Assembly: GCA_028286645.1 (NCBI GenBank)
Contig: JAQBRF010000002.1
Span: forward strand, 1-56,517
Origin: Candidatus Nomurabacteria bacterium
GTDB taxonomy: Bacteria > Patescibacteriota > Minisyncoccia > Phycocordibacterales > UBA5272
DNA length: 56,517 nt
Direction: 5' to 3'
Both the position numbers and the translations under genes were made by a program. Under the pieces are notes generated by a model. That model searched no databases and had not been told where the DNA came from. It worked only from the letters and a program-made list of their open reading frames with translations. Every line of letters begins with the position of its first letter. Within the stretch, counting starts at the first letter, position 1. Below are positions 5,049 to 37,018 of this stretch, one piece after another.

Positions 5049-5121
5049 TGCATCCGCCTGGACTCGAACCAGGGACCAGTCGTGTATAAGACGACGGCTC
5101 TACCAACTGAGCTACGGATGC
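5049..5121 (-). tRNA. tRNA-Ile with anticodon UAU (decodes AUA); CCA not encoded
   Basis: The reverse complement folds as a canonical cloverleaf. Acceptor GCATCCG/CGGATGC, D stem GCTC/GAGC, anticodon stem GTCGT/ACGAC with loop CT-TAT-AC, T stem CCTGG/CCAGG with loop TTCGAGT, discriminator A. The anticodon corresponds to plus-strand ata at 5086-5088. Confidence 0.9.
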
Positions 5122-7963: not shown

Positions 7964-8355
7964 GGGGGTGATCTTTGGCTTCGACATATAGAACTTGCTT
8001 GCATGCGCATTGCCGAGATTGCGAGATACCTCGTTAACCATCTCGCAAACACGTTGCAAATAAAACAGCAACAGCAATCCGTTCACCATACGTGAATGGA
8101 CTTGTCCCAGCATTCGCCTAAATTTTAGGCCGATCTGGTGTTATACCGATTCGCATCTGCGGAGTTGGATATAGCAATATAACAGCAGATGTAGATGTAT
8201 TTATTGCATAGTAATTACATCGAAACTCTTATGCTATACATGTACAGGTTTTCGTTTACTTTCTATCTGTACGTGCGAACACATCAGGTAAACTACGCAT
8301 TGTAGAAACATGTAGCGACTCTATATACACGGCGGTTCGATCCCGCCCACCTCCA
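7964..8355 (+). ncRNA. ssrA: tmRNA (SsrA)
   Basis: The 5' GGGGGTGATCTTTGGCTTCGAC pairs with the 3' CACCTCC plus discriminator A. T-arm GGCGGTTCGATCCCGCC. Internal tag frame GCA AAT ... GCA TTC GCC TAA lies at 8056-8121. Adjacent to smpB and followed by an intrinsic terminator. CCA is not encoded (caa follows). Confidence 0.85.
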
Positions 8356-8365
8356 CAAAAATAAG

Positions 8366-17469: not shown

Positions 17470-17922
17470 TTAGGGTCCCCCTTCTAATTTTTGGCTCATC
17501 TTTTCTATCATTTTAGCCATATCATTTACGACTCCCTGAGACATTCCCTGAAAAACCTTATCAGCTACATCTTGGGCCACCTTATTTGTCGAGATCGGCA
17601 TCCCGTTTGTATCCTTTAAATCATATTTGAAAGAAGCCAGTGACTGTTTGATATCCAGCTTCCCCTCCGTGTCTAGATTTTCAATTGAAGCTTCAACCAG
17701 GTTTTCATTTACTTGTGAAAAATCAATAGGTAAATTATTTTGAAGCATGTGATTAGACAATGCCGTAAGGAAGAGCTGTTTAAAATATGCATCTTTTAAA
17801 GCTTTGTTTAAGATGCTCATTGTATCTTTAGTATCAAGATCGGTTTCTAATCTATCTAATTCTGGATTAAAGCGCTCTAATATCTCCTGATCAGATTCAT
17901 TTCCTTTGTGGGCTTCTAGCAT
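17470..17922 (-). CDS. Hypothetical helical protein
   Basis: 150-aa ORF with TATACT 7 nt before the ATG. No family recognised. Confidence 0.5.
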   Translation of the reverse strand: MLEAHKGNESDQEILERFNPELDRLETDLDTKDTMSILNKALKDAYFKQLFLTALSNHMLQNNLPIDFSQVNENLVEASIENLDTEGKLDIKQSLASFKYDLKDTNGMPISTNKVAQDVADKVFQGMSQGVVNDMAKMIEKMSQKLEGGP

Positions 17923-17954
17923 GGCTTAAAGTATATATCGAATTATTCATTAAT

Positions 17955-17982
17955 AAAAGAGCACCTCTAGAGGTGCTCTTTT
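17955..17982. terminator. Palindromic bidirectional terminator hairpin
   Basis: AAAAGAGCACCTCTAGAGGTGCTCTTTT. Confidence 0.65.
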
Positions 17983-17999
17983 ATTAATGCGCTACGTAT

Positions 18000-18024
18000 G
18001 GCTAATCCGCAAAGCGGACGCCCG
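18000..18024. repeat. GGCTAATCCG-[variable hairpin]-CGGACGCCCG module, copy 2
   Basis: GGCTAATCCGC-aaa-GCGGACGCCCG has the same flanks as 7901-7940 with a shorter internal stem. Confidence 0.5.
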
Positions 18025-18030
18025 GTTGCA

Positions 18031-18234
18031 CTAATGGGCAACATAGGGAAGTAGTCCCATGAAGCGGGCGCGCTTTATTGAGTTCGCTAAAGCTCGCTGA
18101 TTCTTGGCAGTAAGGCCGGTTTTTCTTCTATTTAAGATTCTTGCATGTGGATTTAAGAATTTAACTAGGATTTCTGTATCCTTATAGTCGATAAACTTTA
18201 TATTGTTTTGGTTAAAATAATCTTGTTTTTTCAT
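18031..18234 (-). CDS. rpsR: 30S ribosomal protein S18
   Basis: FIDYKDTEILVKFLNPHARILNRRKTGLTAKNQRALANSIKRARFMGLLPY is typical of S18. Confidence 0.9.
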   Translation of the reverse strand: MKKQDYFNQNNIKFIDYKDTEILVKFLNPHARILNRRKTGLTAKNQRALANSIKRARFMGLLPYVAH

Positions 18235-18272
18235 AAGTGTATTTGTTAATTTGTTTTAAGTTAAATTGTTTT

Positions 18273-18371
18273 AGATACGCGAAGCTTAGAAATTTTACGA
18301 GAGAGATGTACATATTAGTACATTGATCGAGTAAAACTTTCGTAGCGACAAAGTAGATGAAATGATTTTAC
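18273..18371 (-). repeat. Conserved ~95-nt structured intergenic element, copy A (ssb-rpsR spacer)
   Basis: Aligns along its whole length with 36383-36472. Shared blocks are CGTAGCGACAAAG, GCGAAGC and GATTTT. Two nested stems carry compensatory changes (details in findings). Confidence 0.65.
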
Positions 18372-18833
18372 TTAAAATGGTATGTCGTCAACATTAATAT
18401 TGGCATCTCCATAATCAATGGTATCCAAATCCGGCACAGATGAAGTTGGCGCTGGAGTGCTGGAATCTTTTTGGAAGGATCCCGCTCCTTCACCTCCACT
18501 TCCTCCTTTAGGACCGAACTGTACAGCATCCGCAATGATTTCAGTTCTGTATTTCTTCTCTCCTGAGGTTTTATCATCCCAGGATCTCGTTTGAATTCTT
18601 CCTTCAATCATTACTCCTTGGCCTTTCTTTAAGTACTGAGCAGATGTTTCTGCTTGTCGGCCGAATACTACGATATTATGATACTCAGTATTTTCCTTTC
18701 TGTTACCATCTTTGTCTTTATAAACACGATTAGTCGCAAGTGAAAACGAAGTAACTTTAGCACCCGATGGAAGAGATTTCATCTCAGGGTCTCGAGTTAG
18801 ATTTCCGTATAAATATACTTTATTTAGATACAT
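18372..18833 (-). CDS. ssb: Single-stranded DNA-binding protein
   Basis: OB-fold N-terminus (NKVYLYGNLTRDPE...YHNIVVFGRQAE), Gly-rich linker, and acidic tail ending DDIPF. TGaTATAAT lies 6 nt before the ATG. Confidence 0.9.
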   Translation of the reverse strand: MYLNKVYLYGNLTRDPEMKSLPSGAKVTSFSLATNRVYKDKDGNRKENTEYHNIVVFGRQAETSAQYLKKGQGVMIEGRIQTRSWDDKTSGEKKYRTEIIADAVQFGPKGGSGGEGAGSFQKDSSTPAPTSSVPDLDTIDYGDANINVDDIPF

Positions 18834-18910
18834 AATTTTATTATATCAGATTACAGACATCAGAGTCCAGATTGCAGTTTTTCTGATACCGGTCTTCTTC
18901 TCTCTGGTTT

Positions 18911-19453
18911 CTACTTCACTTCTTCGCCAGTTACTTCAGGAGTGACTTCTGGTAACTCATCTGCTGGAGGAATTATGGCAGTTTCTGATCCTGCGATTAC
19001 TTCTTCCGGCATAGTAGTTGTATCAATATCGTCTTCATTGTTTACAAGAGATTCTGCCTTTATGACAGGAGCTCTTTTTGTGTAGACGGTGTTTTCACGT
19101 ACTGTTTTAACAACTAAATATCTAACAACTTCTTCATCTAACTTTATGCTTTTTTCTAATTCCTTTACCTTTTCACCATCTAATTCGAATTTGATCCATC
19201 CAAAGTACCCTTCATTAAAGCGCACATTAATATTGTTAACGACGCGGATCATTTCATAGGCAAGCTCCCTCATATATGGGGCTTCTTCTGAGATGAAGCT
19301 ACCTCCTAGGGTAGCAATAGACTGCTTGATTGCGTCGGCTTTCTCAAGCGCTTTGTTTTCGTCAATCTTATTATCAAAGATATAAGATATTTCGTAAACT
19401 CGGCTGTCTACTATGGTTTCATTATTTTCAGTCATAGGAGCATACTCTACCAT
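18911..19453 (-). CDS. rpsF: 30S ribosomal protein S6 with acidic C-terminal extension
   Basis: VYEISYIF...APYMRELAYEM...GYFGWIKFE...VVRYLVVK matches S6, in the conserved rpsF-ssb-rpsR order. An alternative start at Met7 (19435) is preceded by TGgTAGAGT-N8. Confidence 0.8.
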   Translation of the reverse strand: MVEYAPMTENNETIVDSRVYEISYIFDNKIDENKALEKADAIKQSIATLGGSFISEEAPYMRELAYEMIRVVNNINVRFNEGYFGWIKFELDGEKVKELEKSIKLDEEVVRYLVVKTVRENTVYTKRAPVIKAESLVNNEDDIDTTTMPEEVIAGSETAIIPPADELPEVTPEVTGEEVK

Positions 19454-19461
19454 TAATTAGG

Positions 19462-19493
19462 TAAAAAATAAAGGCCCCGCCAAAGCGGGAGCC
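19462..19493 (-). terminator. Intrinsic terminator of 19509..19982
   Basis: The minus strand reads GGCUCCCGC-UUUG-GCGGGGCC followed by UUUAUUUUUU. Confidence 0.7.
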
Positions 19494-19508
19494 TAATAGA
19501 GCCGATCG

Positions 19509-19982
19509 TCAAACCCCCTCACTTTGGTTTTTCCACTCTTGGAGCGATCTGATAAATTCCTTGAAAATTGGGTCAGTGAGTTGGACCGCTTCACCCGTTT
19601 TATCGACCACACAACTTCTCACGAAATTCAGGTGGCGATGAAATGCGTTGTAGTAGTCGCTCCCGTCTCGAAATGTGAAGCATTCGAAGATATTGGACAA
19701 CCTCTCGAATTCTTCGTCGGGAGAAAAAACTGACCCGAGAGGAGCCACCGCTCCCTTATCCTGAAAAGAGGTATGGAAGTAATGCTCCGCATCCATTCCC
19801 CAGTAAGGGACCTGGGTCTTTTCGCAGGAAAAGTACAGCTCCTTATCTCGATCTTGTCCATGAGCCACCCAAAACTTCGGGGCCACGACAATTCCGAAAC
19901 GACTACGTTTCAAATCATTGGAATCTTTCACGAACACGATGCTTCCCGGCGGTACTTCAAGTACGTATTGATGCTTTGACAT
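19509..19982 (-). CDS. Hypothetical protein (GC-rich islet 2)
   Basis: ORF at about 48-55% GC. Start moved to the ATG at 19982, which is preceded by AGGAGA (19989-19994); the listed ORF begins at a GTG at 20006. No family recognised. Confidence 0.5.
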   Translation of the reverse strand: MSKHQYVLEVPPGSIVFVKDSNDLKRSRFGIVVAPKFWVAHGQDRDKELYFSCEKTQVPYWGMDAEHYFHTSFQDKGAVAPLGSVFSPDEEFERLSNIFECFTFRDGSDYYNAFHRHLNFVRSCVVDKTGEAVQLTDPIFKEFIRSLQEWKNQSEGV

Positions 19983-20043
19983 GCTATGTCTCCTATGATG
20001 TTCCACTAATGAGAATAAACACTGGAGGAAGACCTTCGTTTAA

Positions 20044-20071
20044 ATACTACGCTTATAATCTTTTAAGTCAA
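20044..20071 (-). promoter_or_regulatory. Sigma70-type promoter for 19509..19982
   Basis: Minus strand TTGACT (20066-20071), 16-nt spacer, TAGTAT (20044-20049). Confidence 0.5.
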
Positions 20072-20083
20072 AGCGTCTTAACT

Positions 20084-20110
20084 TAAAATAAAGCCCACCG
20101 AAGTGGGGGT
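20084..20110 (-). terminator. Intrinsic terminator of 20120..20473
   Basis: The minus strand reads CCCAC-UUCG-GUGGG followed by CUUUAUUUUAAG. Confidence 0.65.
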
Positions 20111-20119
20111 GCCTCACCT

Positions 20120-20473
20120 TCAAAGATTGGTGAAGAGGTTGATGTCGGCCACATAGTGGGGGCTCGCCTGAACACATGTGAGCAGAGTGAAGGTGCCATC
20201 TTTGATCATGCGTTGTATGTTACGAATCAAAGATGTCGCTGGCGTGTTAAAAATGGCGAGAATGAGGACCCTTTGGTCAGGTCGCACCCAAAAAAGAACG
20301 AACCTCCTGGTGGTGCCCACGCGCAGGTGTTTAAGTCCTGGGTCATCTACACCCACGAACTTATACTCTCCGGCAATGCCCACTTCGATAAGAAGGTCTG
20401 TCCTTTCCAGACGGTGGACACTCCCCACAAGATAAGAAATGTCGCTAGTTGATAACCTCTGCCGAGACTTCAA
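20120..20473 (-). CDS. Hypothetical protein (GC-rich islet 2, TTG start)
   Basis: 117-aa ORF at about 55% GC. AAGGAG lies 7 nt before the TTG start, and the stop is TGA. No family recognised. Confidence 0.45.
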   Translation of the reverse strand: MKSRQRLSTSDISYLVGSVHRLERTDLLIEVGIAGEYKFVGVDDPGLKHLRVGTTRRFVLFWVRPDQRVLILAIFNTPATSLIRNIQRMIKDGTFTLLTCVQASPHYVADINLFTNL

Positions 20474-20528
20474 AATACTCTCCTTGGTGGATCTAACATT
20501 TATATCCTCTACTTTTAACCAAAAAAAG

Positions 20529-21353
20529 TCAAATGCCGAATGTTCTTCTCGCGTTTTTTAAAAGCTGCTCCCTTACTTTTTCCCCAGCCTCTCCTTTTAT
20601 TTCTGCTATTTTCGCCACTACATCTTTTACATTTCTAGGATCATTTCTTTTTCCTCTATTTGGGACTGGAGTAGCGTATGGGCTATCAGTTTCTGCATGG
20701 ATATGTTCTAATGGGATAAATCTAACCACTTCCTCGTATTCAGAAGCAAACGTTATTACCCCGGAAAAGCTCATGGTAAATCCTATATCTATAAACCTTT
20801 TTGCTATTTCAATATTCCCAACAAAAAAATGAGCGTTTCCCTGTAACTTTTCTCCATGCTTTTCTTCGTAATTTTCTAAGAGCTCAAGCATATCTTCATA
20901 AGCGTCCATTTTTCCCTTGCTTGGTCGTCCGTGAACCATGAGAGGCTTATTCACTTCAAGAGCAAGCTTGATCTGAGCATCAAAAATTATTTTCTGGCGC
21001 AGTTTCTCATCGAGAATGGCACGAGGGTTTCCCGGATCTTCTTGTAAGCGATAATAATCCAGTCCGCATTCCCCTATGGCTACTACTTTCTTGCTTTTTA
21101 GTAATTCTTTGTATTCTGAAATATGTTCGTGAAATATTTCTTCCATGTTATCCGTCGGATGAAGACCAACTGTGGCGTATAAATTGTCATGGAGTTCCGC
21201 CAAAGCTACAGCCTTCTTGCTTTCCGTAATATCAGACCCGACTAAAATTGTCCCGATATTCTTATTCTTCATATCATCTATGATATAGTCTCTATCCTCA
21301 TCAAAAGATTTATCGTGAAGATGGGAATGAATGTCAAAAAATGAATAGTTCAT
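20529..21353 (-). CDS. tatD: TatD-family metal-dependent hydrolase/DNase
   Basis: FDIHSHLHD, GECGLDYY, MVHGR and HAETDSPY motifs of the TatD amidohydrolase fold. Confidence 0.85.
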   Translation of the reverse strand: MNYSFFDIHSHLHDKSFDEDRDYIIDDMKNKNIGTILVGSDITESKKAVALAELHDNLYATVGLHPTDNMEEIFHEHISEYKELLKSKKVVAIGECGLDYYRLQEDPGNPRAILDEKLRQKIIFDAQIKLALEVNKPLMVHGRPSKGKMDAYEDMLELLENYEEKHGEKLQGNAHFFVGNIEIAKRFIDIGFTMSFSGVITFASEYEEVVRFIPLEHIHAETDSPYATPVPNRGKRNDPRNVKDVVAKIAEIKGEAGEKVREQLLKNARRTFGI

Positions 21354-21946
21354 ATGGTAGTTTTTTTCCTAAGGGCATACATTTCTCCTGGCACAGGTAA
21401 CATATCCATAGCTTTCATGACATCATCATTTGAAAGAAATTCGGGTTCTTGCGAAAGAGTAAAGAGGTCTTCATATGTATCTGCGTATTCTATAAATAGC
21501 CTCTTTGCAACATCTGGAGTATATGAGTCCATAATTACAATCTCTCCATGCAAAGACAAGACTCGGGCCAATTCAGAAAAAAGTTTTTTAAGATGCTCTT
21601 TAGCTAATTCAGGGAAAATCCCATGCAACGGAGAAGGCTGAGAATTTCCCTGCACCTTGCCAACCTCCATTCCTGAATTGCCAAAAAAATTCCTAGCTAA
21701 AATATATTTAAATTCTCCATCTCTAAAAGGTAGGTTGTAGGCCTTGGCGATAACTCTGGGCACTTTTTCTGAATCATTTAGATTATTTTCTTTTAACATT
21801 GCTTTTGCACTCATGTCTGAAATAACAGAAAAGCCCATGTTAACGCCGGATTTCTTTAAGTAGTCTACAATCGGTCTAAAACCTGCGCCAATTTCCAATA
21901 TCTTTTCAGGAGGACTTTCGATATTTCTTTCAGGTGAAAATTCCAT
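21350..21946 (-). CDS. Class I SAM-dependent methyltransferase-like protein
   Basis: Motif I-like ILEIGAGF plus an acidic motif II region. Start placed at Met32 (21946), one nt after the metG stop; the listed ORF overlaps metG up to 22039. Confidence 0.45.
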   Translation of the reverse strand: MEFSPERNIESPPEKILEIGAGFRPIVDYLKKSGVNMGFSVISDMSAKAMLKENNLNDSEKVPRVIAKAYNLPFRDGEFKYILARNFFGNSGMEVGKVQGNSQPSPLHGIFPELAKEHLKKLFSELARVLSLHGEIVIMDSYTPDVAKRLFIEYADTYEDLFTLSQEPEFLSNDDVMKAMDMLPVPGEMYALRKKTTI

Positions 21947-21947
21947 A

Positions 21948-23426
21948 TTATAATCGCGCAAAAAGCGGTTTTTCTGGCATTTTGTTAACACTGATAGTTT
22001 CCTTAATCTTTTCTGCCGTTCTCGGAATAATCGGTTCAAGCATTATAGCTACCTCCCATAAATTTCTGACAAGTTTATAAATCATTTCTTTTCCACGAGC
22101 TTCATCCACTTTTATAACCTTAAATGGCTCATTTGTTTGCATATACTCATCCATCTTTTGTGTCGTCTGAGTTATAGCTTCTACTGCTTTTTTTATATCA
22201 TACGCGTTCAAGTTTTGTATATACTGTTTATATAAATCATCATCTTTATAAGTTTCGCTCCATTTGTACTCCTCTGATAGAGTAACTTTATATGTTTCGG
22301 CTAATTTCATAATGCGGTTAGTAAGATTGCCTATACCATTTGCTAAATAAGCCGAATATATATCTTTGATGCTTGTGATGTCAATATTAGTATCTTCAAA
22401 CGAAGGAAGCTGCAGCAAAAAGAATCTTAGTACGTCCTCCGGAAAATCCGTAAATGGTTTAAATAATTCTACTACCTCGTAAGGATTTATAACATTCCCT
22501 AATGACTTACTCATTTTTCTTCCATCGACTCCATTTATAAAACCATTAATTATGATTTTTTTAGATGGGTTAAGTCCTGCTGAGATTAGCATAGCTTGCC
22601 ACATCGAAGATTGCTGGCGATTATTATCTTTTCCGCAATATTGGATAACCCCACCTGATTGATTCCACCACTTTTCAAAAGTATCCTTATCATGCGGCCA
22701 TCCAATTGCTGAAATATAACTAACTAAAGCATCAAACCATACATACATGACTTGTGTCTCGTCCCCTGGTACAGGTATTCCCCAAGGCATTTTAGATTTT
22801 AAACGCGAAATAGAAAAGTCCTCTAAGCCTCTTTCTGTCCACTTCAAGGTTTCATTAAAGCGAAATTGAGGAGTGATAAAATCAGGATGTTCTTTATATA
22901 AAGACATGAGTTTATCTTGGTACTTTGAATACTTAAAAAAATAATTTTCTTCTTCGCGAATTTCAATTTCAAGGTTTGTGTGGAGTGGGCATTTACCGTC
23001 TACTAACTCACTGTCGGTTTTTTCCAGTTCACAGCCATTGCAATATTTCACCTTATACTGTTTTTTATAAATATCGCCGGTCTCATCGCATAATTTCCAA
23101 AATTTCTTCGCTGCTTCTATATGTTTTTCATCTGTAGTACGGACAAAACTACTAATAGAAAGATTAAGAGCTTCTATAAGTTCAGAAAACTTGGCGCTAT
23201 AAATATCCACATATTCCTGAGGAGTTTTGCCAGCGAGTGTCGCCTCTTCAAAGATTTTAACTCCATGTTCATCTGTTCCTGTATTAAAAAAAACTTCTTC
23301 GTTTAATGAATTATGGTATCGAGCAATAGCATCCGCACGTACTATTTCCATAGCAAAGCCGATATGCGGATCCGAGTTCACATAAGGAAGCGTGGTGGTA
23401 ATGTAAAAAGGTTTTTTAGATGGCAT
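21948..23426 (-). CDS. metG: Methionyl-tRNA synthetase
   Basis: HIGH-type PYVNSDPHIGFA, zinc knuckles CNGCE...CPLH, and KMSKS as RKMSKSLGN. Start placed at Met9 (23426), just after the upstream stop; the listed ORF extends to 23450. Confidence 0.9.
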   Translation of the reverse strand: MPSKKPFYITTTLPYVNSDPHIGFAMEIVRADAIARYHNSLNEEVFFNTGTDEHGVKIFEEATLAGKTPQEYVDIYSAKFSELIEALNLSISSFVRTTDEKHIEAAKKFWKLCDETGDIYKKQYKVKYCNGCELEKTDSELVDGKCPLHTNLEIEIREEENYFFKYSKYQDKLMSLYKEHPDFITPQFRFNETLKWTERGLEDFSISRLKSKMPWGIPVPGDETQVMYVWFDALVSYISAIGWPHDKDTFEKWWNQSGGVIQYCGKDNNRQQSSMWQAMLISAGLNPSKKIIINGFINGVDGRKMSKSLGNVINPYEVVELFKPFTDFPEDVLRFFLLQLPSFEDTNIDITSIKDIYSAYLANGIGNLTNRIMKLAETYKVTLSEEYKWSETYKDDDLYKQYIQNLNAYDIKKAVEAITQTTQKMDEYMQTNEPFKVIKVDEARGKEMIYKLVRNLWEVAIMLEPIIPRTAEKIKETISVNKMPEKPLFARL

Positions 23427-24459
23427 TCTTTCTTTTGTCAAAATCAGCAACTAGCTCCATAAACACTGAAGCTAGCGGAACGGCTAATATTATTCCCCAG
23501 ATACCTGCAAACTTCGCGCCAATTATAACGGCCACGATTACGATAATAGATGGGACCCCAACTAACTTAGTCATAACTCTCGGCACAAGCACATGATTTT
23601 CCAACTGATGGATGATAATAAATATTACCGCGACTATTCCTAATAAAGAACCTCCTCCATGAGCATAAGCTAAGAATAATCCCGGGACCACAGAAAATAG
23701 TAGACCGACAATAGGAATGAGTTCTCCAAAAAATGCAAGTATCGCAAGTAATGCAGCGTATGGAATACCTAAAATAAGCATTGGGATGAGCACGAGAATT
23801 CCCATTATAAATGATAGCAGAAGCTGTCCCTGTACCCATAGTCCGATCTTTCTTTGGGATCTTATCATTATATCCTTTATGTATTCTTCATAGCTTTTTG
23901 GAAAAATTAAATGCAAGAACTTTTCCACCCCTCTTTCTTGAAGAGAAAGATAAAATGCCATAACAAACACTATAATAATATTCACTACAGAACCAAGTAA
24001 GGCCGTCGTGGTAGCGAAGAAACTTCCAGCGCCGAACAATGTTTCTTTCGCCACTGTAAGAATTTGCGTTCCGGATATTTCACCTGAATAAGCCTGAAGA
24101 GAGGCAGAGAGATCGCGAAAGCCTAAGTCCTTGCCGAAGATCCTAAATGAATCTAATAGCTGTGGGAGATTATGGATAAATCGCGCAGCATCATCTGCAA
24201 GCGGTGGGACAACTACCGCGACTAAAGAAGCAATTATTGCTACAAAGATAATAAAAATAGCTGCGACAGATAGACCGCGGGATAACCCCCATTTCATTAA
24301 CGACTTAATAGGCATTTCTGCGGCGGATGCCAATACCACCGCCACAAGCAAAGCAATGATCACATCGCGCGCGTAGTAAAGCCCGGCAAAAAAGGCAATC
24401 CAAAGTATAGTTTTAATAATAGTAGACGAGGCTACGGTAATGCGTACATTTTCTTTCAT
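23416..24459 (-). CDS. AI-2E family (PerM-like) transporter
   Basis: 347 aa, about 8 TM. The layout and the C-terminal GELIPIVG...ILAVPL pattern are typical of AI-2E/PerM. TGaTAGGAT lies 6 nt before the ATG. Confidence 0.7.
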   Translation of the reverse strand: MKENVRITVASSTIIKTILWIAFFAGLYYARDVIIALLVAVVLASAAEMPIKSLMKWGLSRGLSVAAIFIIFVAIIASLVAVVVPPLADDAARFIHNLPQLLDSFRIFGKDLGFRDLSASLQAYSGEISGTQILTVAKETLFGAGSFFATTTALLGSVVNIIIVFVMAFYLSLQERGVEKFLHLIFPKSYEEYIKDIMIRSQRKIGLWVQGQLLLSFIMGILVLIPMLILGIPYAALLAILAFFGELIPIVGLLFSVVPGLFLAYAHGGGSLLGIVAVIFIIIHQLENHVLVPRVMTKLVGVPSIIVIVAVIIGAKFAGIWGIILAVPLASVFMELVADFDKRKNAI

Positions 24460-24502
24460 TGCTTTATCCTATCATAGGAATATTCTATTTGCCACGAAAG
24501 AT

Positions 24503-26368
24503 TTACTTGTCTACTACAATTCCTGAATTTACACCTAGGGATTCATTTGATAATTTGGTGGTAAGCGCCGATATCGTGGTACGAAGGTGAGCTTTTGAAG
24601 TTTCTTCATCAGCATCCAATACTATCCCAGAAGTAATAGAAGGAGACTTTCCTGCATGACTCTGAGAAGGTTTAACAGTGAGCCCTATATCCCCTGTGGT
24701 AGTTTTTCCTGCATCAATACGCCCTATATTCCATGTAACCGTCCTAGTATTTGGCTCATATGTAATAGCAGCATTATCGGAGGTTACCCCTCTCCAGGAA
24801 ACATATATTGGAAGTACGAATGATACCTTTGAATTCACCAAAGCATTTTGCGCAGAAACAACTATATGAGCTGTATATGTCGTATCTTTATTTACTACAG
24901 GAGGAATCGGCCCTGTATTAGTAAATGTAGATATTTTATAATGAGTCTCTGCATTTATCGTGGCGCTTCCTTGAACCACCCAAGACTTATTAACTTTTGC
25001 CACTACATCATTACTGGATTGAAGGGAGCCAGCTCCTGTTATCCCTACTTTAAGCGACGGTGAATTTGTTCCTTTTAGAACTATAGGAATAACGACCCTT
25101 ACGTAACTTTCTTTATGTGGCGGCAATGATTGGAAGTCAGGAATAATACTTTTATCCCAAGTTATTGTTCTGGAAGCCGAGTCATAATACCCTGTGCCTG
25201 GATCAATTTGATTATAAAGCGGCGCATCTCCATCAATATTTAAAGTAAGCTTTACATTCTGAATAGGCGTATCGCTGCTGTTAGTATATGTAATCGTAAG
25301 AGTGGCACTGTCTCCGTATCTTAATGTCTCCGCCTGGCCCCTATCAGTATCTAAAGCTACTTTGAATGAAAGCGGTGAAGATCTTAAGTGAATATCATAC
25401 ACCTGAGAAGAATATACTATGCCGATAGTATTTATGTTACCCCCCTGAGAACCGATTATAGCCTTCATGGTACCTGTTTCGCCACCGGAACCAGAAAGAG
25501 CTCCTGAGAAACCAATTTTATATGTCGAACCGCTCTCGATAGCGGGGATCTGCCATGTGGGGCCATATCCGGATTGCTTTGGGCTAGAACTATTAAATGT
25601 AAAATTTGCCGGGAGAGTTAAAAGAAGTAAGCTGGGAAGCGAGGTGGTGGCAGTATTATTTGTTACTATCATGGAAAAATCTCCGTTTTGATCAGCTGAT
25701 AATGTATCAGGCCCCGAAAGTACTATAGACAGGGGTGGAGTTTTTAAAACTACAGAGGAAGTAATGGTCTTGCTAAAAATCGCATTTGATCCGCTGACCT
25801 TATAATCCAACTTTAATGTGACGTCTCTTGCTTCCGCCTCACTTCCATAAAGTGTTATTTTAAAATCCTGTTTTTTATATTCATCCGGATTTATTGTCCC
25901 TATAACTCTTTTTTCTTGAACTTTTTCCTGTTGATCTTGTGATCCCACCCCCTGCTTATAAATAAGAGTAAGGGAAGCACTTTCTAATAGAACGCTATTT
26001 TTATTATGAATAGTTACAGTTACTGGTATTTCTTCTCCTCCGGAAATTGTAGGGGCTACATCAGCCGTCATTTCAATATTATTGCTAGATACAATATTTC
26101 TAGAGGATAAAATCCTCCAAGACGTAAACAAAAGAGCAAGCAGCAATATAATGCCTGAAATAATTAAAAACTTAGCGCCAAAAGATAAGCCTTCATTCTT
26201 CTTTAGCTCTTTTATAATTTGAGTATTTTCACCCCAAGAAGTCGGAAGCTCTACCTCGCGACGATTCTTCACTCTATGGACAGAGATTGATTCCTCCTTT
26301 TTCTTTGGATCATATAATTGGTGCTCAATGGAATCTAAAGCACTATTTTCTTCAAACGAATCGTTCAT
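24503..26368 (-). CDS. Large single-pass surface protein with beta-rich (Ig/DUF11-like) ectodomain
   Basis: 621 aa with a cytosolic N-terminus, TM FGAKFLIISGIILLLALLF, and a long Ser/Thr/Gly-rich repetitive beta-strand-type sequence. TGtTATACT lies 6 nt before the ATG. Confidence 0.5.
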   Translation of the reverse strand: MNDSFEENSALDSIEHQLYDPKKKEESISVHRVKNRREVELPTSWGENTQIIKELKKNEGLSFGAKFLIISGIILLLALLFTSWRILSSRNIVSSNNIEMTADVAPTISGGEEIPVTVTIHNKNSVLLESASLTLIYKQGVGSQDQQEKVQEKRVIGTINPDEYKKQDFKITLYGSEAEARDVTLKLDYKVSGSNAIFSKTITSSVVLKTPPLSIVLSGPDTLSADQNGDFSMIVTNNTATTSLPSLLLLTLPANFTFNSSSPKQSGYGPTWQIPAIESGSTYKIGFSGALSGSGGETGTMKAIIGSQGGNINTIGIVYSSQVYDIHLRSSPLSFKVALDTDRGQAETLRYGDSATLTITYTNSSDTPIQNVKLTLNIDGDAPLYNQIDPGTGYYDSASRTITWDKSIIPDFQSLPPHKESYVRVVIPIVLKGTNSPSLKVGITGAGSLQSSNDVVAKVNKSWVVQGSATINAETHYKISTFTNTGPIPPVVNKDTTYTAHIVVSAQNALVNSKVSFVLPIYVSWRGVTSDNAAITYEPNTRTVTWNIGRIDAGKTTTGDIGLTVKPSQSHAGKSPSITSGIVLDADEETSKAHLRTTISALTTKLSNESLGVNSGIVVDK

Positions 26369-26465
26369 ATTACTAGTATAACAGGGGCAGTCGGTAGCGG
26401 GTAGCGTTTAGAAAAGGAAATACGCATTTCTTTATAAGAATTTATTCCAACTCCGCCTATTCTAT

Positions 26466-27020
26466 CTATAACTGAATTTCCTTGAGGACGAGAGAGACGT
26501 GGGAGTGCACATCTTTATATGCAAGCGTTAGGTGGGTATATATATCGTCCATACTCCAGGAAATATATTCCTTCATGTTTTTGGCGCCTATAGCTTTAAT
26601 ATCTGCATATCCTAAATCTACTAAAATTATATAATAAAGAAGCACCTTTGCTTTTGAAGGTTCGTAAGTAGTGAACTTCTGAAAAAACTCGCCCAGCCTG
26701 TCGTATAAAATCTTGTGTTCTCCTTCGCCACGAATAAGCCTTCTAATAATTTTAATTGCTTCTTGTACAGCTTCTCCTTTAGCTTTTTGATTTTCTGCCC
26801 CCACCAATCTCCATACCTCCTTACCTTTCACTAAGGTAACTAGCCCCACTCTTCCCGGGAGCACATGGGCACGCAATTTGCTGGCAAGCTTTCGTATGCT
26901 TCTTGCATGGACCATTACCATTCCAAATTCTCGGGTAAATAACTTTATTACACGATCATGCTCTCCTTGATCAAAAGCATCTATGACAATACTTTCGGTT
27001 GTATGTTTTTCAATAGCCAT
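26466..27020 (-). CDS. recO: DNA repair protein RecO (short form)
   Basis: The N-terminal OB-like segment ESIVIDAFDQGEHDRVIKLFTREFGMVMVHARSIRK...LVKGKEVWRL resembles RecO. Confidence 0.55.
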   Translation of the reverse strand: MAIEKHTTESIVIDAFDQGEHDRVIKLFTREFGMVMVHARSIRKLASKLRAHVLPGRVGLVTLVKGKEVWRLVGAENQKAKGEAVQEAIKIIRRLIRGEGEHKILYDRLGEFFQKFTTYEPSKAKVLLYYIILVDLGYADIKAIGAKNMKEYISWSMDDIYTHLTLAYKDVHSHVSLVLKEIQL

Positions 27021-27067
27021 GGGAATGGATTTTAGACATTAGATTTTAGATGGGGAAAAATCACTAA

Positions 27068-30000
27068 TTAAAACTCGAAAGAAATTTCACCGGAAGATAC
27101 TTCGACTTTATTTTTTAATTCATCTTGAGTAATTTTAATTTCTGAAATATTACAGATCTTTTTCAAATCATCCAAAGATTCATCATCAAAAGAAGACTGG
27201 AGTGTGAGAATAACTTTATCTTTTGGCGATAATCCCATTTCCTTTCTCTTATCTTGAATGGCTCGGATTAATTCACGTACATCCCCTTCCTTTTTTAATT
27301 CCTCAGTTAAATTTAAATCTAAAGATACCACACTGTCGCCCTCTGAGCCAACTATTATCTCTTTTACATTTACTTCTTCTTTTATTAACTGATGATATTT
27401 AACTGAAATGTTTTTGATAGTGGTCAAAGTTTGAAGAGGCTGACGCACAGAAATTTTACTCTTGGTTCTTTCCATTAAAGCTTGAGACACGACATCTCGA
27501 ACTTCCTGCATTTCGGATATGATTTCCGATTCTACTTCTCCACCCTTTGGCCAACTTTCTAAGTGAACACTTTCTTTTTCTCCTCCAACTGCTTTATATA
27601 TTCTTTCTGATATAAATGGCATGACGGGAGCCATTACTTTTGAAAGCTCTAGAAGAACGTAAGTAAGCGTTACATATGCGTTCTTTTGTTCGTCTTCCCC
27701 ATCATCCCCCTTTAATCTACTTCGTGAGCGTCTTACATACCATACGGATAAATCATCAATTAATTGCTCAAGCGGACGCACAGCTTCATCAATTTTATAA
27801 CTGTCATAAGATAATGTTGCTGATTTTATAACCTCATGGATACGGCTTAGTATCCACTTGTCTATAACAGCATCTGAAGTGAGAGGAGAAGTGATTTGAA
27901 TCTTATTCATTTCATAAAGAGATACTACATTTTCCAATCTAGAAATTAACTTTTTATATACAGACGAGACATTTTCGTCATCAAACTCTACATTCTCGCC
28001 TTTTACTAAAGGACTAGAGATAAGAGCATATCTAATAGCATCAGCTCCGTACTTTTCAATCAATACCATAGGATCGGTGTAGTTCCCTTCTCTTTTTGAA
28101 AGTTTTGCGCCTGACTTTGCCATTACCCACCCGGTAACTATCACATGCTTATATGGAGCTCTGTTGAATAACCCCACCCCTAAATTAAGAAGCGAGTAAA
28201 ACCACCCCCTCGTCTGGTCCATAGCCTCACCAATAAAGTCTGCCGGGTATGCTGTATCAAATAAATCTTTGTTCTCAAATGGATAATGAATAGACGCAAA
28301 CGGCATTGATCCTGATTCGAACCAGCAGTCAAACACATCGGGAATTCTTTTCATTTCGCCTCCGCAATCACAAGTAAATTTAAAATCATCAATATATGGA
28401 CGATGAAGATTAATAACTCCTGTTTCATCTCTAGGAATCACCTTGGGAACAAGCTCACGAGCAACGGCGTTAGGCATCCAATCCCCAGGACCCAGATTAA
28501 TCATTTCATTATTTATATCGCTGTCAGTCCTTAAAGTTACTCCAGAAGAAAGCATCCAACCTGGACCTCCGTGAGTAATTATTAAAATATTTTTACCTTT
28601 ATATTTCTTTTCTAAGTCATACCACGCGGACATTACCCTTTTCATTAGCTCTCGGTGAGTCTCACCATCTTTTATTTCAGAATCTAAATTTATTTCTTTA
28701 AATGTGCCGTGATAATCAGATATTGGCCTTTTATCAAAAACCCCTAGATTAAATTCCTTCAGCCTTTCCTCCTCAATTATTTCTATCCCGCCTAATGATT
28801 TACTAACTATTTCCGCCGTCTCTTTGGTACGAAGAAATGGAGATGCGACGATTAAATCAATTTTTTCGTTTAACGCTTCTTTTACTTTTTCTGCTTGGCT
28901 TCTTCCATTCTCGGTGAGATGATTATTTGGGTCACCACTACAATCTATTACGCCATTTTGATTGCTAATTGCTTCTCCATGGCGCATTATAAAATATTTA
29001 TTATTAGCCTCTCTTCCTTCTGAAAGTTCTTCTAGAGATCCTATCACCTTTATTTTTTCACATTCTTCACATTTCCATACAGGAAGCGGCGCCCCCCAAT
29101 ATCGTGCGCGAGACACGGCCCATTCTCGTGCTCCTTCTAACCACTTTCCAAAACGCCCATCGCGCACATGTTCTGGCGTCCATCCAATTTTAGAATTCTC
29201 TTCGAGTAATTTATCCTTCATCTTAGGTACATCCACGAACCATGATGATGTTGCATACTGAATTAGCGGAGTCTTACATCTCCAACAAAGCGGGTACGAG
29301 TGGATTATTTTATGCTTTTCGAAAAGTAATCCGTGGTGCGCTAAATATTTTATTATTTCAATGTCCGCTGATTGCGTGTCATTTACTTGTTTTACCTTCA
29401 TCTGGGCAAAGTCAGTAACTTCAGAAATAAATCTCCCATCCATAGTTACATGCTTTATAATTGGAATATTATTTTGCTTTGCTAATTCCATGTCTTCCGC
29501 ACCAAATGCTGGCGCTTCGTGAGCTATCCCAGTTCCTGTATCTAATGTAATAAAATCTGCATGCCAGGTTTTCCAAATGTTTTCCTTATTTTCTAATTCT
29601 GTATCTTTGAAATATGGAAATACCGGAAGGTAAGATTTACCGAGCAGCTTTTCTCCCTTGAAGGTATCTACAACTTCGTATTTATGATCCTTTAGTACTT
29701 CTTCGACTCTTTCTTTTGCCAATATATATATGCCTTCCATTCCATCAACTTTTACTTTTTCATAATCAGCATCCTTATGAAGAGCAAGAGCGGTATTGCC
29801 TGGTAGCGTCCAAGGGGTCGTAGTCCAAGCTAAAATAAATGTTCCCGGTTCGTCTGTTAGCTCAAACTTAGCAGTTACAGAAATATCCGTAACATCATGA
29901 TATTCTAATCCCACTTCAGATTGAGCAAGAGGAGTCTCGCACCTCGGACAAATGTGCATCATTTTAAATCCTTCATAAGCTAAACCTTTTTTCCATAACT

Positions 30001-30499
30001 CATTCCACGCCCACCAAATACTTTCGGTATAAGTTGCGTCCATGGTTTTATATGGATGATCCATGTCCACCCATCTTCCAAGTCGAGGGATTACCCCCCT
30101 CCACTCTTCTTCGTATTTAAGAACTGACTCATATGCATCGCGATTAAATTTATCAATACCAAACTCTTCAATATCTTTTTTACTATTTAAATTAAGTTTC
30201 TTCTCTATTAGATTTTCTATCGGAAGACCGTGGCAATCCCATCCCCAAACTCGGCGAACACGCTTTCCGTTCATAGTTTGGTATCGTGGGACAGCATCTT
30301 TTACAACACTTTGAAGTATGTGGCCATAATGAGGAAGTCCCGTAGCAAATGGAGGACCATCGTAAAAAGAGAAATCTCCCCTTGGCTCGTCTCCCGCTGG
30401 AGTTTCTAGCGACTTTCCAAAAATGTTATTTTCATTCCAAAAAGCTAGTACTTCTTTTTCTTTTTCGCTTATTGTTTTTTGTTTGTTTGGTTCTTGCAT
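27068..30499 (-). CDS. ileS: Isoleucyl-tRNA synthetase (type 2-like) with an inserted histidine-phosphatase domain
   Basis: PHYGHIL (HIGH), TTTPWTLPGN editing motif, WAVSRARYWG, DVFDCWFESGSMPF, DQTRGWFYS, KLSKR (KMSKS). Start set at the ATG at 30499, because the 33 upstream codons of the listed ORF are the T-box leader. Confidence 0.95.
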   Translation of the reverse strand: MQEPNKQKTISEKEKEVLAFWNENNIFGKSLETPAGDEPRGDFSFYDGPPFATGLPHYGHILQSVVKDAVPRYQTMNGKRVRRVWGWDCHGLPIENLIEKKLNLNSKKDIEEFGIDKFNRDAYESVLKYEEEWRGVIPRLGRWVDMDHPYKTMDATYTESIWWAWNELWKKGLAYEGFKMMHICPRCETPLAQSEVGLEYHDVTDISVTAKFELTDEPGTFILAWTTTPWTLPGNTALALHKDADYEKVKVDGMEGIYILAKERVEEVLKDHKYEVVDTFKGEKLLGKSYLPVFPYFKDTELENKENIWKTWHADFITLDTGTGIAHEAPAFGAEDMELAKQNNIPIIKHVTMDGRFISEVTDFAQMKVKQVNDTQSADIEIIKYLAHHGLLFEKHKIIHSYPLCWRCKTPLIQYATSSWFVDVPKMKDKLLEENSKIGWTPEHVRDGRFGKWLEGAREWAVSRARYWGAPLPVWKCEECEKIKVIGSLEELSEGREANNKYFIMRHGEAISNQNGVIDCSGDPNNHLTENGRSQAEKVKEALNEKIDLIVASPFLRTKETAEIVSKSLGGIEIIEEERLKEFNLGVFDKRPISDYHGTFKEINLDSEIKDGETHRELMKRVMSAWYDLEKKYKGKNILIITHGGPGWMLSSGVTLRTDSDINNEMINLGPGDWMPNAVARELVPKVIPRDETGVINLHRPYIDDFKFTCDCGGEMKRIPDVFDCWFESGSMPFASIHYPFENKDLFDTAYPADFIGEAMDQTRGWFYSLLNLGVGLFNRAPYKHVIVTGWVMAKSGAKLSKREGNYTDPMVLIEKYGADAIRYALISSPLVKGENVEFDDENVSSVYKKLISRLENVVSLYEMNKIQITSPLTSDAVIDKWILSRIHEVIKSATLSYDSYKIDEAVRPLEQLIDDLSVWYVRRSRSRLKGDDGEDEQKNAYVTLTYVLLELSKVMAPVMPFISERIYKAVGGEKESVHLESWPKGGEVESEIISEMQEVRDVVSQALMERTKSKISVRQPLQTLTTIKNISVKYHQLIKEEVNVKEIIVGSEGDSVVSLDLNLTEELKKEGDVRELIRAIQDKRKEMGLSPKDKVILTLQSSFDDESLDDLKKICNISEIKITQDELKNKVEVSSGEISFEF

Positions 30500-30690
30500 A
30501 GATAAAAATAAAACTCGTCCTTGAGAAACAACCAAAGGTTGCTTTCCAAGGACGAGCGCTATATTCGCGATCGTGGTACCACCTTGATTCTCCCTCACAA
30601 ATGTTCGGGACTCATTTATGGGCTCTACGTTCCGTAATTTACGGAGTTCTTCCCGAAGCTCAGGGGTGATTAGTCCCGTCGTCGCTATAT
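30500..30690 (-). promoter_or_regulatory. T-box riboswitch leader of ileS (antiterminator/terminator)
   Basis: The minus strand shows AAUCAAGGUGGUACCACG (30572-30590). The terminator is CUCGUCCUUG/CAAGGACGAG (30514-30523 with 30548-30557) plus a U-tract. An alternative antiterminator pairing is CGAUCGC/GCGCUCG with CAAGG/CCUUG. Confidence 0.75.
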
Positions 30691-30694
30691 ATTT

Positions 30695-30722
30695 ATCTTA
30701 CATCAGGAGGATAAAAAGTAAA
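30695..30722 (-). promoter_or_regulatory. Candidate promoter of the ileS leader
   Basis: Minus strand TTTACT (30717-30722), 16-nt spacer, TAAGAT (30695-30700). Confidence 0.35.
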
Positions 30723-30731
30723 GAGCTCTCG

Positions 30732-30840
30732 ACTCCACGGCAGCGGAGTGATTTCTCGCCCTGGCCTACAGGAAAAATTTACTCACAACTCCATGGTCGT
30801 TGGAGTGATTTCTCGCTCATGCAATCCGGCGAGAAATCAC
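30732..30840. repeat. Repeated hairpin modules in the argS-ileS spacer
   Basis: ACTCCacggcagcGGAGTGATTTCTCGCC (30732-30760) and ACTCCAtggtcgtTGGAGTGATTTCTCGCT (30788-30817) are direct copies. GCGAGAAATCAC (30829-30840, overlapping the argS stop) is the inverted partner of GTGATTTCTCGC. Confidence 0.6.
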
Positions 30841-32558: not shown

Positions 32559-32595
32559 CTCCCTATACTACCTTATTTATGGGCTTTTTTACAGG

Positions 32596-32624
32596 TTGCA
32601 CACGGCAAACATTAAGCATATTCT
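32596..32624 (+). promoter_or_regulatory. Sigma70-type promoter of thyA
   Basis: TTGCAC (32596-32601), 17-nt spacer, TATTCT (32619-32624). AAGGA lies before the ATG. Confidence 0.45.
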
Positions 32625-32654
32625 AAATACATACGCATTTACCAAAAGGAATAT

Positions 32655-33449
32655 ATGCGATCCTACCTTGATCTTTTACGGCGTGTGCGAGAAAATGGTG
32701 CTCAGAAAAGAGATCGGACTGGCACAGGGACTCTTTCCATTTTCGGAGAACAACTTCGCTTTGATTTAAATGCGCGTTTTCCGCTTCTAACCACGAAGAA
32801 GGTTTTCCTGAAGGGAGTTATCCACGAATTGCTCTGGTTCTTAAAGGGCGAAACCAACATCGAGTACCTGAAAGAAAATGGTGTAAAGATCTGGGACGAG
32901 TGGGCCGATGAAAACGGCGATCTCGGACCAGTATACGGGTATCAGTGGAGAAGCTGGCCGGCGTCTGATGGCAGGTACATCGACCAGATATCTCAAGTGC
33001 TGGAGCAGCTTCGCACCAATCCCGACTCGCGCCGAATGTGTGTATCAGCATGGAATGTAGCCGACTTAGACGAAATGGCACTCATGCCATGTCACATGTA
33101 TTTTCAGTTCTATGTGGCAGATGGAAGACTTTCGTGCCAGGTCTATCAACGAAGCGCGGACATCTTCCTGGGGGTACCATTCAACATCGCGTCATACGCG
33201 CTGCTTACAATGATGGTCGCACAAGTTTGCGGACTCGCACTCGGGGACTTCGTTCACACCTTTGGTGACACCCATCTTTACTTAAACCACATCAAGCAAG
33301 CAGATGAGCAGCTCACACGAGATCCTCGACCGCTGCCTATCATGCATCTTAACCCTGAGGTAAAAGACCTCTTCGCATTCAAGTATGAGGACTTCACTCT
33401 CGAAGGCTACGATCCGCATCCTGCAATTGCAGGCAAGGTCGCAGTCTGA
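32655..33449 (+). CDS. thyA: Thymidylate synthase ThyA (GC-rich islet 3)
   Basis: 264 aa. [28 protein letters not shown], catalytic Cys in [13 protein letters not shown], and [18 protein letters not shown]. About 55% GC. Confidence 0.95.
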
Positions 33450-33454
33450 ACTTT

Positions 33455-33478
33455 CCGCGCAGGAGTGCGCGGTTTTTT
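33455..33478 (+). terminator. Intrinsic terminator of thyA
   Basis: CCGCGCA-ggag-TGCGCGG followed by TTTTTT. Confidence 0.8.
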
Positions 33479-33500
33479 ATTGCAAAATAAATTTAGCATA

Positions 33501-33530
33501 AAAAATGCCCGTCCTTTCGGCGGGCAAAAA
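33501..33530 (-). terminator. Intrinsic terminator of 33550..34638
   Basis: The minus strand reads UGCCCG-ccgaaagga-CGGGCA followed by UUUUU. Confidence 0.7.
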
Positions 33531-33549
33531 TGTGTTTCCTGCTTCATGG

Positions 33550-34638: not shown

Positions 34639-34731
34639 ATCTATGCCCTCCTTGGGCGAATGGTTAGGTTTACAGAATGCACCGATGGTGCACTGTTTCG
34701 TCCTTACCCTATCATAAATTTATACCGAAAA

Positions 34732-35820: not shown

Positions 35821-35853
35821 CAAACCATCATAACAGATACATTAACCAAAACA

Positions 35854-35879
35854 AAAATCCGCAACTAATGCGGATTTTT
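35854..35879 (-). terminator. Intrinsic terminator after rplK
   Basis: AAAAATCCGC-aactaat-GCGGATTTTT. Confidence 0.8.
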
Positions 35880-35892
35880 GTTTGTATTTTCA

Positions 35893-36306: not shown

Positions 36307-36382
36307 ATAAGTTTCGGTATTATAACACTTAATTTATTTAATTTCAAGGTCTTCTTTTATGTAAAAAGAGAGAAATTGCTTC

Positions 36383-36472
36383 AGATGAGCGAAGCATAGG
36401 GATTTTGTAAAGAGACGTACAATGAGTACGTTGATGAGCAAAATTCCGTAGCGACAAAGCAGATGGAGTGAT
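36383..36472 (-). repeat. Conserved ~95-nt structured intergenic element, copy B (nusG-rplK spacer)
   Basis: Aligns with 18273-18371 (see findings). Begins directly after the nusG stop codon. Confidence 0.65.
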
Positions 36473-37018
36473 TTATATCTTTTTAATCTGGAGGAAGTCG
36501 AGCTCAACTGGAGTCTCTCTCCCAAACATGTTCACAAGCACCTTCAGCTTGCCTCTTGCCTTATCCACCTCGCTTACCTTGCCTTCAAAGTCTTTGAATG
36601 GACCATCAACAATAGAAACTAATTCCCCGACTTCTACAGCTACCTCATGCTCAATTTCTCCCGTTTTCATGCGATTAAATAGAAAATCAATTTCTTTTTG
36701 TGATAGTGGAACCGGAGTTGTCCCAGCTCCCACGAATCCTGTAACTCGAGGAGTGTTACGAACAACGTACCATGAGTTATCATCCACAATCATGTCTACC
36801 AGAACATATCCAGGATAAATTTTTTCCTCAACTTCCACACGCTTTGTCCCCTTAATTTTAATTTTCTTTTCAAGCGGAACTACCACATCGAAGATTTTAT
36901 TTTCCATGCCAAGAGACTCGATTCTCTGCTTTAGATTTCTCTGCACGGCATTTTCGTAACCGCTGTATGTATGGATAGCATACCAATGTCGCTCTCCTGT
37001 AAATTCTTGTTTAGCCAT
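36473..37018 (-). CDS. nusG: Transcription termination/antitermination factor NusG
   Basis: NGN domain (WYAIHTYSGYENAV) and KOW motif (GELVSIVDGPFKDFEGKVSEVD), in the conserved secE-nusG-rplK order. Confidence 0.9.
   Translation of the reverse strand: MAKQEFTGERHWYAIHTYSGYENAVQRNLKQRIESLGMENKIFDVVVPLEKKIKIKGTKRVEVEEKIYPGYVLVDMIVDDNSWYVVRNTPRVTGFVGAGTTPVPLSQKEIDFLFNRMKTGEIEHEVAVEVGELVSIVDGPFKDFEGKVSEVDKARGKLKVLVNMFGRETPVELDFLQIKKI

Follow-up and report, generated by a model that had tools for sequence, protein, structure and literature searches.

Two spacers in the window (the whole stretch of DNA that was analysed, 56,517 nt) contain the same structured element. Copy A lies between ssb and rpsR, and copy B lies between nusG and rplK. 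By Pfam, the flanking genes encode SSB and S18 (copy A) and NusG and L11 (copy B), and all four are on the minus strand. The two spacers are homologous, align end to end and share a long hairpin. An earlier note on this DNA had described both copies, and all the coordinates and pairings it gave agree with the sequence. The length it gave, about 95 nt, was too short, however. The element is a rod-like hairpin of about 125-135 nt, whose outer stem reaches the ssb stop codon in copy A and covers the nusG stop codon in copy B. The features of the two copies are:

18248..18385, plus strand: full covariance-model match of copy A (model R1, 121.6 bits, E=7e-23)
18253-18378, plus strand: hairpin proper of copy A, antisense to ssb and rpsR
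18273..18283, plus strand: 5' half of the conserved core of copy A (A, GA of the tandem G.A loop, UAC helix, internal loop GCGAA; consensus of 85 copies)
18293-18298/18331-18336, plus strand: copy A stem TTTTAC/GTAAAA
18306..18323, plus strand: apical hairpin of copy A with the near-invariant GTAC/GTAC stem (ATGTAC/GTACAT at 18306-18311/18318-18323)
18347..18358, plus strand: 3' half of the conserved core of copy A (internal loop GACAAA, GUA helix, GA of the tandem G.A loop, U; consensus)
18372..18374, minus strand: ssb stop codon TAA, within the 3' arm of the outer stem of copy A
36319..36347, minus strand: rplK promoter TTGAAA-17-TATAAT with TG, 11/12 consensus matches
36358..36491, plus strand: full covariance-model match of copy B (model R1, 110.9 bits, E=2e-20)
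36363-36484, plus strand: hairpin of copy B, antisense to nusG and rplK
36402-36407/36439-36444, plus strand: copy B stem ATTTTG/CAAAAT
36415-36420/36426-36431, plus strand: inner stem of copy B, ACGTAC/GTACGT
36473..36484, minus strand: nusG stop and last three codons (K K I), forming one arm of the outer stem of copy B

The ssb open reading frame (18372..18833) ends in ...DDIPF. Folded as the plus strand, copy A has a minimum free energy of -42.8 kcal/mol compared to -22.1 for its reverse complement (z = -6.4 against shuffled sequences), and copy B has -44.4 compared to -24.7 kcal/mol. The comparison with Rfam that the earlier note had proposed gave the element no family: nothing in Rfam 15 matched it at gathering score across the whole window, and nothing matched any of seven copies at E-values up to 5. 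Elsewhere in the window Rfam finds a tmRNA gene (7964-8358, plus strand, 94.7 bits) and a tRNA gene (5049-5121, minus strand).

The hairpin is built in layers. Its base is formed by an outer stem of roughly 11 bp, whose sequence is particular to each copy and whose length is fairly constant (10-13 bp). Above it come the AAAUUG/YAAUUU stem, which is conserved, a symmetric 2x2 loop with AGAU on both sides (tandem G.A), a 3-bp UAC/GUA helix and a purine-rich internal loop that is also conserved (GCGAA or NAGGC opposite RACAAA). Toward the tip there is a variable stem, a second purine-rich loop and a tip stem that is almost always (C)GUAC/GUAC(G). The 5' core motif of copy A is also present in copies from Acidaminococcus.

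Compensatory changes, which the earlier note had read from two copies, hold across an alignment of 85 copies from about 50 genomes. Both sides have changed in 38 of the 43 pairs, standard pairs fill 90.4% of 3625 cells and all four Watson-Crick types occur in the stems. Covariation scores 0.64, compared to 0.20 for shuffled columns and 0.12-0.18 for slid partners; because the alignment was fitted to the model these figures lean toward structure, yet the margin is large. By covariation, the UAC/GUA helix becomes UUC/GAA or UGC/GCA in some copies (pair 33-190 is AU in 51 copies, GC in 25 and UA in 8). Tip columns 65-68 with 152-155 are near-invariant or covary (CG 65, GC 18). The outer stem is paired in 91% of its cells, so that terminal inverted repeats are present, while its sequence is not conserved within the family. 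Hammerhead and hairpin ribozymes, K-turns and 6S-like RNAs were considered and rejected, since their motifs do not fit and Rfam gives no match.

Two congeners have copies with an extra 45-55 nt in the apical part (L085:1747-1938 and L136:2596-2776), which break the GUAC tip and leave the rest intact. Either the tip tolerates insertions or these are nested elements.

The element is also much more frequent than the two copies of the earlier note suggested. With copy A as query, a search of the 863-kb genome returns copy B at E=8e-14 and five further copies. Iterated nhmmer and the covariance model R1 bring the number to 19 in this 0.86-Mb genome. Among 24 congeners 23 carry between 1 and 54 copies (overall range 0-54), and a genome with a single copy still has a well-formed one. 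Nothing points to a recent burst: among 20 copies sampled from the genome with 54, pairwise identity reaches 85% at most, with a median of 66%.

Outside the genus, model matches come from 4 of 16 other families of the order and from 7 of the 150 genomes sampled across the phylum; these copies, too, are antisense and follow stop codons. We also scanned one genome per species with a pattern and then applied the covariance model, which within the phylum confirms copies in Saccharibacteria, Kaiserbacteria and Yonathbacteria. About 110 chance matches are expected from the pattern, and all counts are therefore restricted to model-confirmed loci; pattern matches in Megasphaera and Ktedonosporobacter were not confirmed and are due to chance. 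Outside the phylum, the cultured species Acidaminococcus fermentans has 13 confirmed copies, which lie behind gamma-glutamyltranspeptidase, Tex and other genes. Further confirmed copies occur in Peptococcaceae, Christensenella, Limiplasma, several Deltaproteobacteria MAGs, Bdellovibrionales, Gemmatimonadales and a Treponema MAG. Of the options in the earlier note, a lineage-specific REP/MITE-like repeat came closest, but a repeat found in several phyla is not lineage-specific. We found no description of the element in the papers searched on CPR repeats, structured RNAs of Patescibacteria, stop-codon MITEs or Acidaminococcus repeats. Hence, the family is apparently undescribed.

The copies of A. 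fermentans (L188, L209) show conservation of their outer arms (CCAGGCGCGGAAGAUG...) and of an 11-nt tail (GUUAUGCGUUA), whereas the arms differ in every Nomurabacteria copy. The A. fermentans hairpins reach about -100 kcal/mol.

Copies are placed at the ends of genes. Fourteen of the 19 own copies touch or overlap, with the 3' end of their folding strand, the stop codon of a gene encoded on the opposite strand. Four further copies have the usual orientation and lie farther from the stop. Only one copy is reversed (C5:2030-2163); here the folding strand is the sense strand of a transketolase gene and begins 3 nt past its stop. Of the more distant copies, one follows the 16S rRNA at 172 nt and one follows, at 50 nt, a small Lys/Ala-rich gene that has a canonical terminator of its own; for a third, the nearest upstream ORF ends about 170 nt away and no stop codon adjoins the hairpin. 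All large contigs contain dispersed copies, and the core genes that precede them are mutually unrelated: gyrA, tsaD, a DUF4015 hydrolase, an M23/LysM peptidase, uvrA, nrdB, SOD, a DEAD-box helicase, pilB, FtsW/RodA, ssb, nusG, rpsO, rpsG and dnaJ. The copies behind tsaD, uvrA and dnaJ sit between convergent genes, and the sites include the S7/EF-G boundary. Translation genes adjoin only 5 of the 19 copies. The link to ribosomal operons that the earlier note had drawn is therefore not supported; its view that the element is no mimic for single-protein autoregulation is.

The position of the stop codon can be given for 79 copies with a callable upstream frame. It falls inside the hairpin in 61 of them, either in the outermost 3-9 nt as in copy A (47 copies) or beside the conserved stem as in copy B, where about four last codons form the outer arm (14 copies). 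In another 15 of the 79 the stop lies 1-29 nt upstream of the hairpin.

The small Lys/Ala-rich protein (25-36 aa, MAAKKKAAKK...) is encoded at L178:286-363 (= own C5:456685-456762) and at L053:1682-1792. Its gene has a GC-stem/T-tract terminator of its own, with the element just behind it. This site holds the sole copy of one congener. Between two species the terminator is better conserved than the element.

Which of the two strands folds can be told from the copies themselves. The folding strand is the plus strand of the window, antisense to all four neighbouring genes. It is the more stable strand in all 19 own copies (mean -41.7 compared to -29.0 kcal/mol) and in all 29 copies from other phyla (-67.7 compared to -56.0), so that the antisense side wins in 48 of the 48 copies folded. 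The base pairs agree with this. Read on the folding strand, the modelled pairs of the 85-copy alignment comprise 2970 Watson-Crick, 307 G.U and 55 A.C pairs, and G.U is concentrated at the fixed pairs 22-200, 28-195 and 62-158. Deamination on an exposed sense strand would give a bias opposite to this excess of G.U. The surplus of G.U over A.C together with the asymmetry in stability indicates that the constrained molecule is the template-strand side, which may be single-stranded DNA or an antisense transcript, and not the mRNA.

Gene strand and GC skew are confounded in the own genome, and gene direction and replication direction are thus inseparable there. A single copy behind a gene that opposes its arm (C3:133205) follows the orientation of the gene, and one case is too few to decide. 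Two small metatranscriptomes of the source study have nothing over 17500-37400 of the window, which carries no weight either way.

Presence of the element varies between species. The ssb/rpsR site is filled in 17 of 30 congeners, and at five of the unfilled sites the spacer has no more than 9-12 nt. Six of the 30 have a copy at a second site, immediately downstream of rpsR, and in two species rpsR is bracketed by two copies. The nusG/rplK site is empty in 5 congeners. One unit occurs at ssb/rpsR in one species and after rpsR in another; the two are 93.7% identical over their full length, arms included, and are flanked at both sites by TA...TA (ACAGAC subfamily), of which the left TA is part of the stop codon. 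This pair is our strongest argument that the unit has moved as a whole and that TA may be its target.

Many copies look as if they had been inserted into the TA of a stop codon. The hairpin base has the consensus UAAA...UUUA; as TA is palindromic and merges with the stem, a target duplication is ambiguous. In several copies one of the two ends has no clean TA; at the FtsW site, TC or TG stands in place of the right-hand TA in 7 of 12 copies. Losses are visible as well. Three species (L087, L094, L095) have truncated remnants after rpsR, which consist of the left arm alone, of the right arm alone, or of both arms around a deleted centre. Hence, copies are lost through internal deletion and not through precise excision.

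The rpsR end of the window has a small insertion of its own. Directly after the rpsR stop TAG (18031-18033) lie 29 inserted nucleotides (18002-18030, minus strand) that begin with TGCAAC, the complement of GTTGC in rpsR itself. They are followed by a spare rpsR end, CCATACGTAGCGCATTAA (17984-18001, minus strand), which codes for P Y V A H and a stop, and then by a canonical terminator with A-tract, GC stem and T-tract (about 17949-17983, minus strand). Two congeners have the same layout of insert, spare end and terminator, and one of the two has the hairpin element against the spare rpsR stop, not the real one.

Where a copy is present it is well conserved. Orthologous ssb/rpsR copies are 70-89% identical between species, whereas the fourfold degenerate sites of ssb and rpsR are 30-57% identical and close to saturation. 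Such conservation far above synonymous sites, with compensation in place, looks more like selection at the level of the host than like a selfish repeat.

The outer arms show how closely a copy can fit its site. In copy B the far arm (36363-36374) is the complement of the nusG-end arm and pairs with AAAAAGA of the KKI codons. These codons are native to the gene: five congeners that lack the element have the same C-terminus, KK[IV] and stop. The same holds for FtsW/RodA, where the C-terminus NEF[VL]GLE and stop is found in species with and without the element. Here the far arm, about 100 nt downstream, complements the codon choice of each of 12 species, including GGC CTC GAA, GGA TTG GAG, GGT TTA GAG and GGA CTT GAG. 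Arm pairs are Watson-Crick in 140 of 168 cells, and the third codon positions show 3-4 different pair types.

Arms that were palindromic targets before the insertion can be rejected as an explanation, because empty orthologous sites hold no palindrome. The far arm must therefore have been made or tuned during or after insertion. Template switching is a known mutational process at quasi-palindromes. The arms may be kept matched by such switching within the hairpin, by selection or by both.

The surroundings of the copies do not make the element a transcription signal of a familiar type. A T-rich tail follows the hairpin on the sense strand in only 7 of 84 copies and on the plus strand in 13 of 84. 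In the 100 nt upstream of the 84 copies there is no position-specific or fixed -10-like promoter signal on either strand. Canonical terminators with GC stem and U-tract occur separately, following or preceding the element, and thus the element is not needed to terminate. A canonical terminator is excluded in either direction because the U-tract is absent on both strands. An independent small-RNA gene with a promoter of its own also appears to be excluded, judged from the absence of a fixed promoter and of a terminator tail in these alignments.

Behind copy B there is a promoter that belongs to the next gene. The rplK promoter begins 15 nt beyond the far end of the hairpin (36363), and 12 nt separate its end from the ATG. 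In five congeners that lack the element, the same promoter comes directly after the nusG stop. Its position predicts a leader of about 5 nt, which is consistent with leaderless or near-leaderless translation. Copy B also contains an alternative hairpin on the sense strand, TGCTTC...GAAGCA with a T-rich tail (36377-36396, minus strand), that resembles a nusG terminator; copy A has no counterpart.

As for a putative cognate enzyme, the own genome with its 19 copies has no match to Y1_Tnp/RAYT (PF01797), RVT_1, IS110 or IS630-type DDE_3. Y1_Tnp, IS110 and DDE_3 occur sporadically in congeners and do not track copy number. The only tyrosine recombinases are Xer-like, one being present in every genome checked, and no extra recombinase tracks copy number. 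A. fermentans has a RAYT/IS200-like ORF of 164 aa (L298:1312-1806; HUH motif HIHFIV, YYEH) that is below the Pfam cut-off, and no copy of the element lies within 1.5 kb of it.

Comparison with known repeats places the element near several of them. ERIC, Correia/NEMIS and RUP-type MITEs are imperfect palindromes of 100-160 bp with a TA target; they are co-transcribed with their neighbours and have orientation-dependent effects on RNA. Our element resembles them in size, in forming one hairpin over its whole length, in its intergenic position near stop codons, in having no coding capacity, in the TA at both ends (in at least one subfamily) and in a presence that varies between species. It differs from ERIC, Correia and RUP in that its ends are the most variable and its interior loops the most conserved parts. 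Its copies are old (at most 85% identity within a genome) and spread across phyla, no matching IS was found, its orientation is nearly fixed with an antisense fold, and its outer arms can be the last codons of a host gene.

With REP/BIME and REPIN sequences, the element shares dispersed extragenic hairpins at gene 3' ends that are long-lived. The REP/BIME/REPIN-RAYT system is one in which folded single-stranded DNA is recognised. However, our element is longer and has three conserved internal loops, and its GTAG-like tetranucleotide, which is invariant and single-stranded in the known system, forms base pairs here and changes by covariation to GAAG or GCAG. A REP-RAYT pair is excluded, as the own genome has no match to PF01797 and GUA pairs with UAC and covaries.

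Rickettsia palindromic elements are also small hairpin repeats of a reduced genome that touch or enter coding sequence. They insert in frame and are translated, whereas our element stays outside and only its stem arm borrows the last codons.

Taken together, we think it probable, though well short of certain, that the family is a non-autonomous insertion element of gene ends, of the MITE/REP/ERIC kind, that is recognised by its structure, the recognised form being the folded single strand of the template side. The folded strand would be single-stranded DNA during movement or replication, or else an antisense transcript. Once inserted, a copy would persist across speciation as a hairpin at the gene boundary. 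Its outer stem would stay complementary, even to the last codons of the gene, through concerted evolution of the two arms, for which template switching within the hairpin, selection or both could be responsible. If the host benefits, then the likeliest effect is a separation of transcription units, because rplK has its own promoter right behind copy B. The earlier note had expected dozens of copies at random intergenic sites to favour a simple selfish repeat. A repeat is indeed favoured, but a simple selfish repeat does not cover this family: the sites are non-random and the covariation is strong.

A bolder version of this reading takes the matching of the arms literally. The outer stem would then be written to match each site, down to synonymous codons, and would be read on the antisense or template strand, by an element that crosses phyla and encodes no protein. 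We offer this tentatively and think it rather less than likely. If it were true, there would have to be a templated step that matches the arms at insertion or during maintenance (snap-back or template-switch synthesis), or a universal host factor that is guided to gene ends by base pairing. Either mechanism would make this a new class of mobile element or gene-boundary signal and not another MITE.

The main rival to an insertion element is an antisense-RNA insulator that is selected by the host. It would act at gene ends, in transcripts that run back from the AT-rich, near-symmetric promoter of the next gene, and its hairpin would stop or mark these transcripts, as a dsRNase target or a protein site, before they reach the upstream essential gene. 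An insulator accounts for the conservation better than a mobile element does, since the copies are conserved far above synonymous sites and their arms change in step, and even a genome with one copy keeps it well formed. The antisense fold with RNA-like fixed G.U pairs, a tandem G.A loop and purine-rich loops would suit an RNA, the hairpin base coincides with the stop codon, and a strong promoter of the next gene lies directly behind copy B. What makes the insulator unlikely in our view is that the folding strand has no promoter-like element at a fixed upstream distance, that a U-tract follows the hairpin in 13 of 84 copies only, that congeners with the same gene set carry anything from 0 to 54 copies, and that some sites contain decayed remnants.

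The element could also act on the sense strand, as a 3'-UTR element whose weaker, reverse-complement hairpin ends, processes or stabilises the upstream mRNA, as REP and ERIC do in enterobacteria. This seems improbable. The preference for the other strand, in pairing (G.U 307 compared to A.C 55) and in stability (48 of 48 folded copies), speaks against it, as do the scarcity of U-tracts (7 of 84 copies) and the canonical terminators nearby, which leave termination without need of the element. It is true that the element is always directly 3' of a gene, that the reverse complement still folds at about -29 kcal/mol and that copy B separates nusG from the promoter-bearing rplK. Moreover, the sites include classical unit boundaries (rpsO, dnaJ, S7/EF-G and downstream of the 16S).

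Very doubtful, too, is a recombination site of folded single-stranded DNA, similar to the attC sites of integrons, in which a tyrosine or HUH recombinase would read the bottom-strand hairpin and the copies would mark gene-sized units of exchange. The likeness to attC is real: both lie directly after a stop codon, fold better as the bottom strand and conserve structure while the stem sequence is free to vary. The distribution across phyla, the bracketing of rpsR by two copies in two species and the Xer-like recombinase of every genome checked would also fit. However, the consensus ends, nnnunnaaa ... uuunnn, contain no R''/R' core sites (RYYYAAC ... GTTRRRY). The copies are dispersed behind core housekeeping genes whose order is conserved and form no array beside an integrase, and no additional recombinase follows copy number. 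An integron attC site proper is excluded by the missing core sites, the missing cassette array beside intI and the restriction to Xer-like recombinases. Finally, a ribosomal-protein leader for rpsR and rplK, or the intra-operon attenuator that the earlier note had listed, would be suggested by the two copies upstream of S18 and L11, but is contradicted by strand and distribution alike and hardly credible: the remaining own copies include fourteen behind unrelated genes, the plus strand, which folds, is the wrong one, antisense to ssb-rpsR and nusG-rplK, no Rfam leader matches, and close relatives with the same operons have empty sites.

For annotation, neither ribosomal-protein leader nor terminator is a suitable name for these elements. 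In ultra-small genomes they take up a visible share of the scarce non-coding DNA. Their traits have not been found together in known bacterial repeats: placement at stop codons, a near-fixed orientation and an antisense fold, combined with conservation above synonymous sites and arms that covary with the last codons. The copies in A. fermentans, which is cultured, make the question testable at the bench. A mechanistic matching of the arms would point to a hitherto undescribed route by which insertions are made or targeted, and a selective one to an uncharacterised structural signal at gene ends in leaderless, compact genomes.
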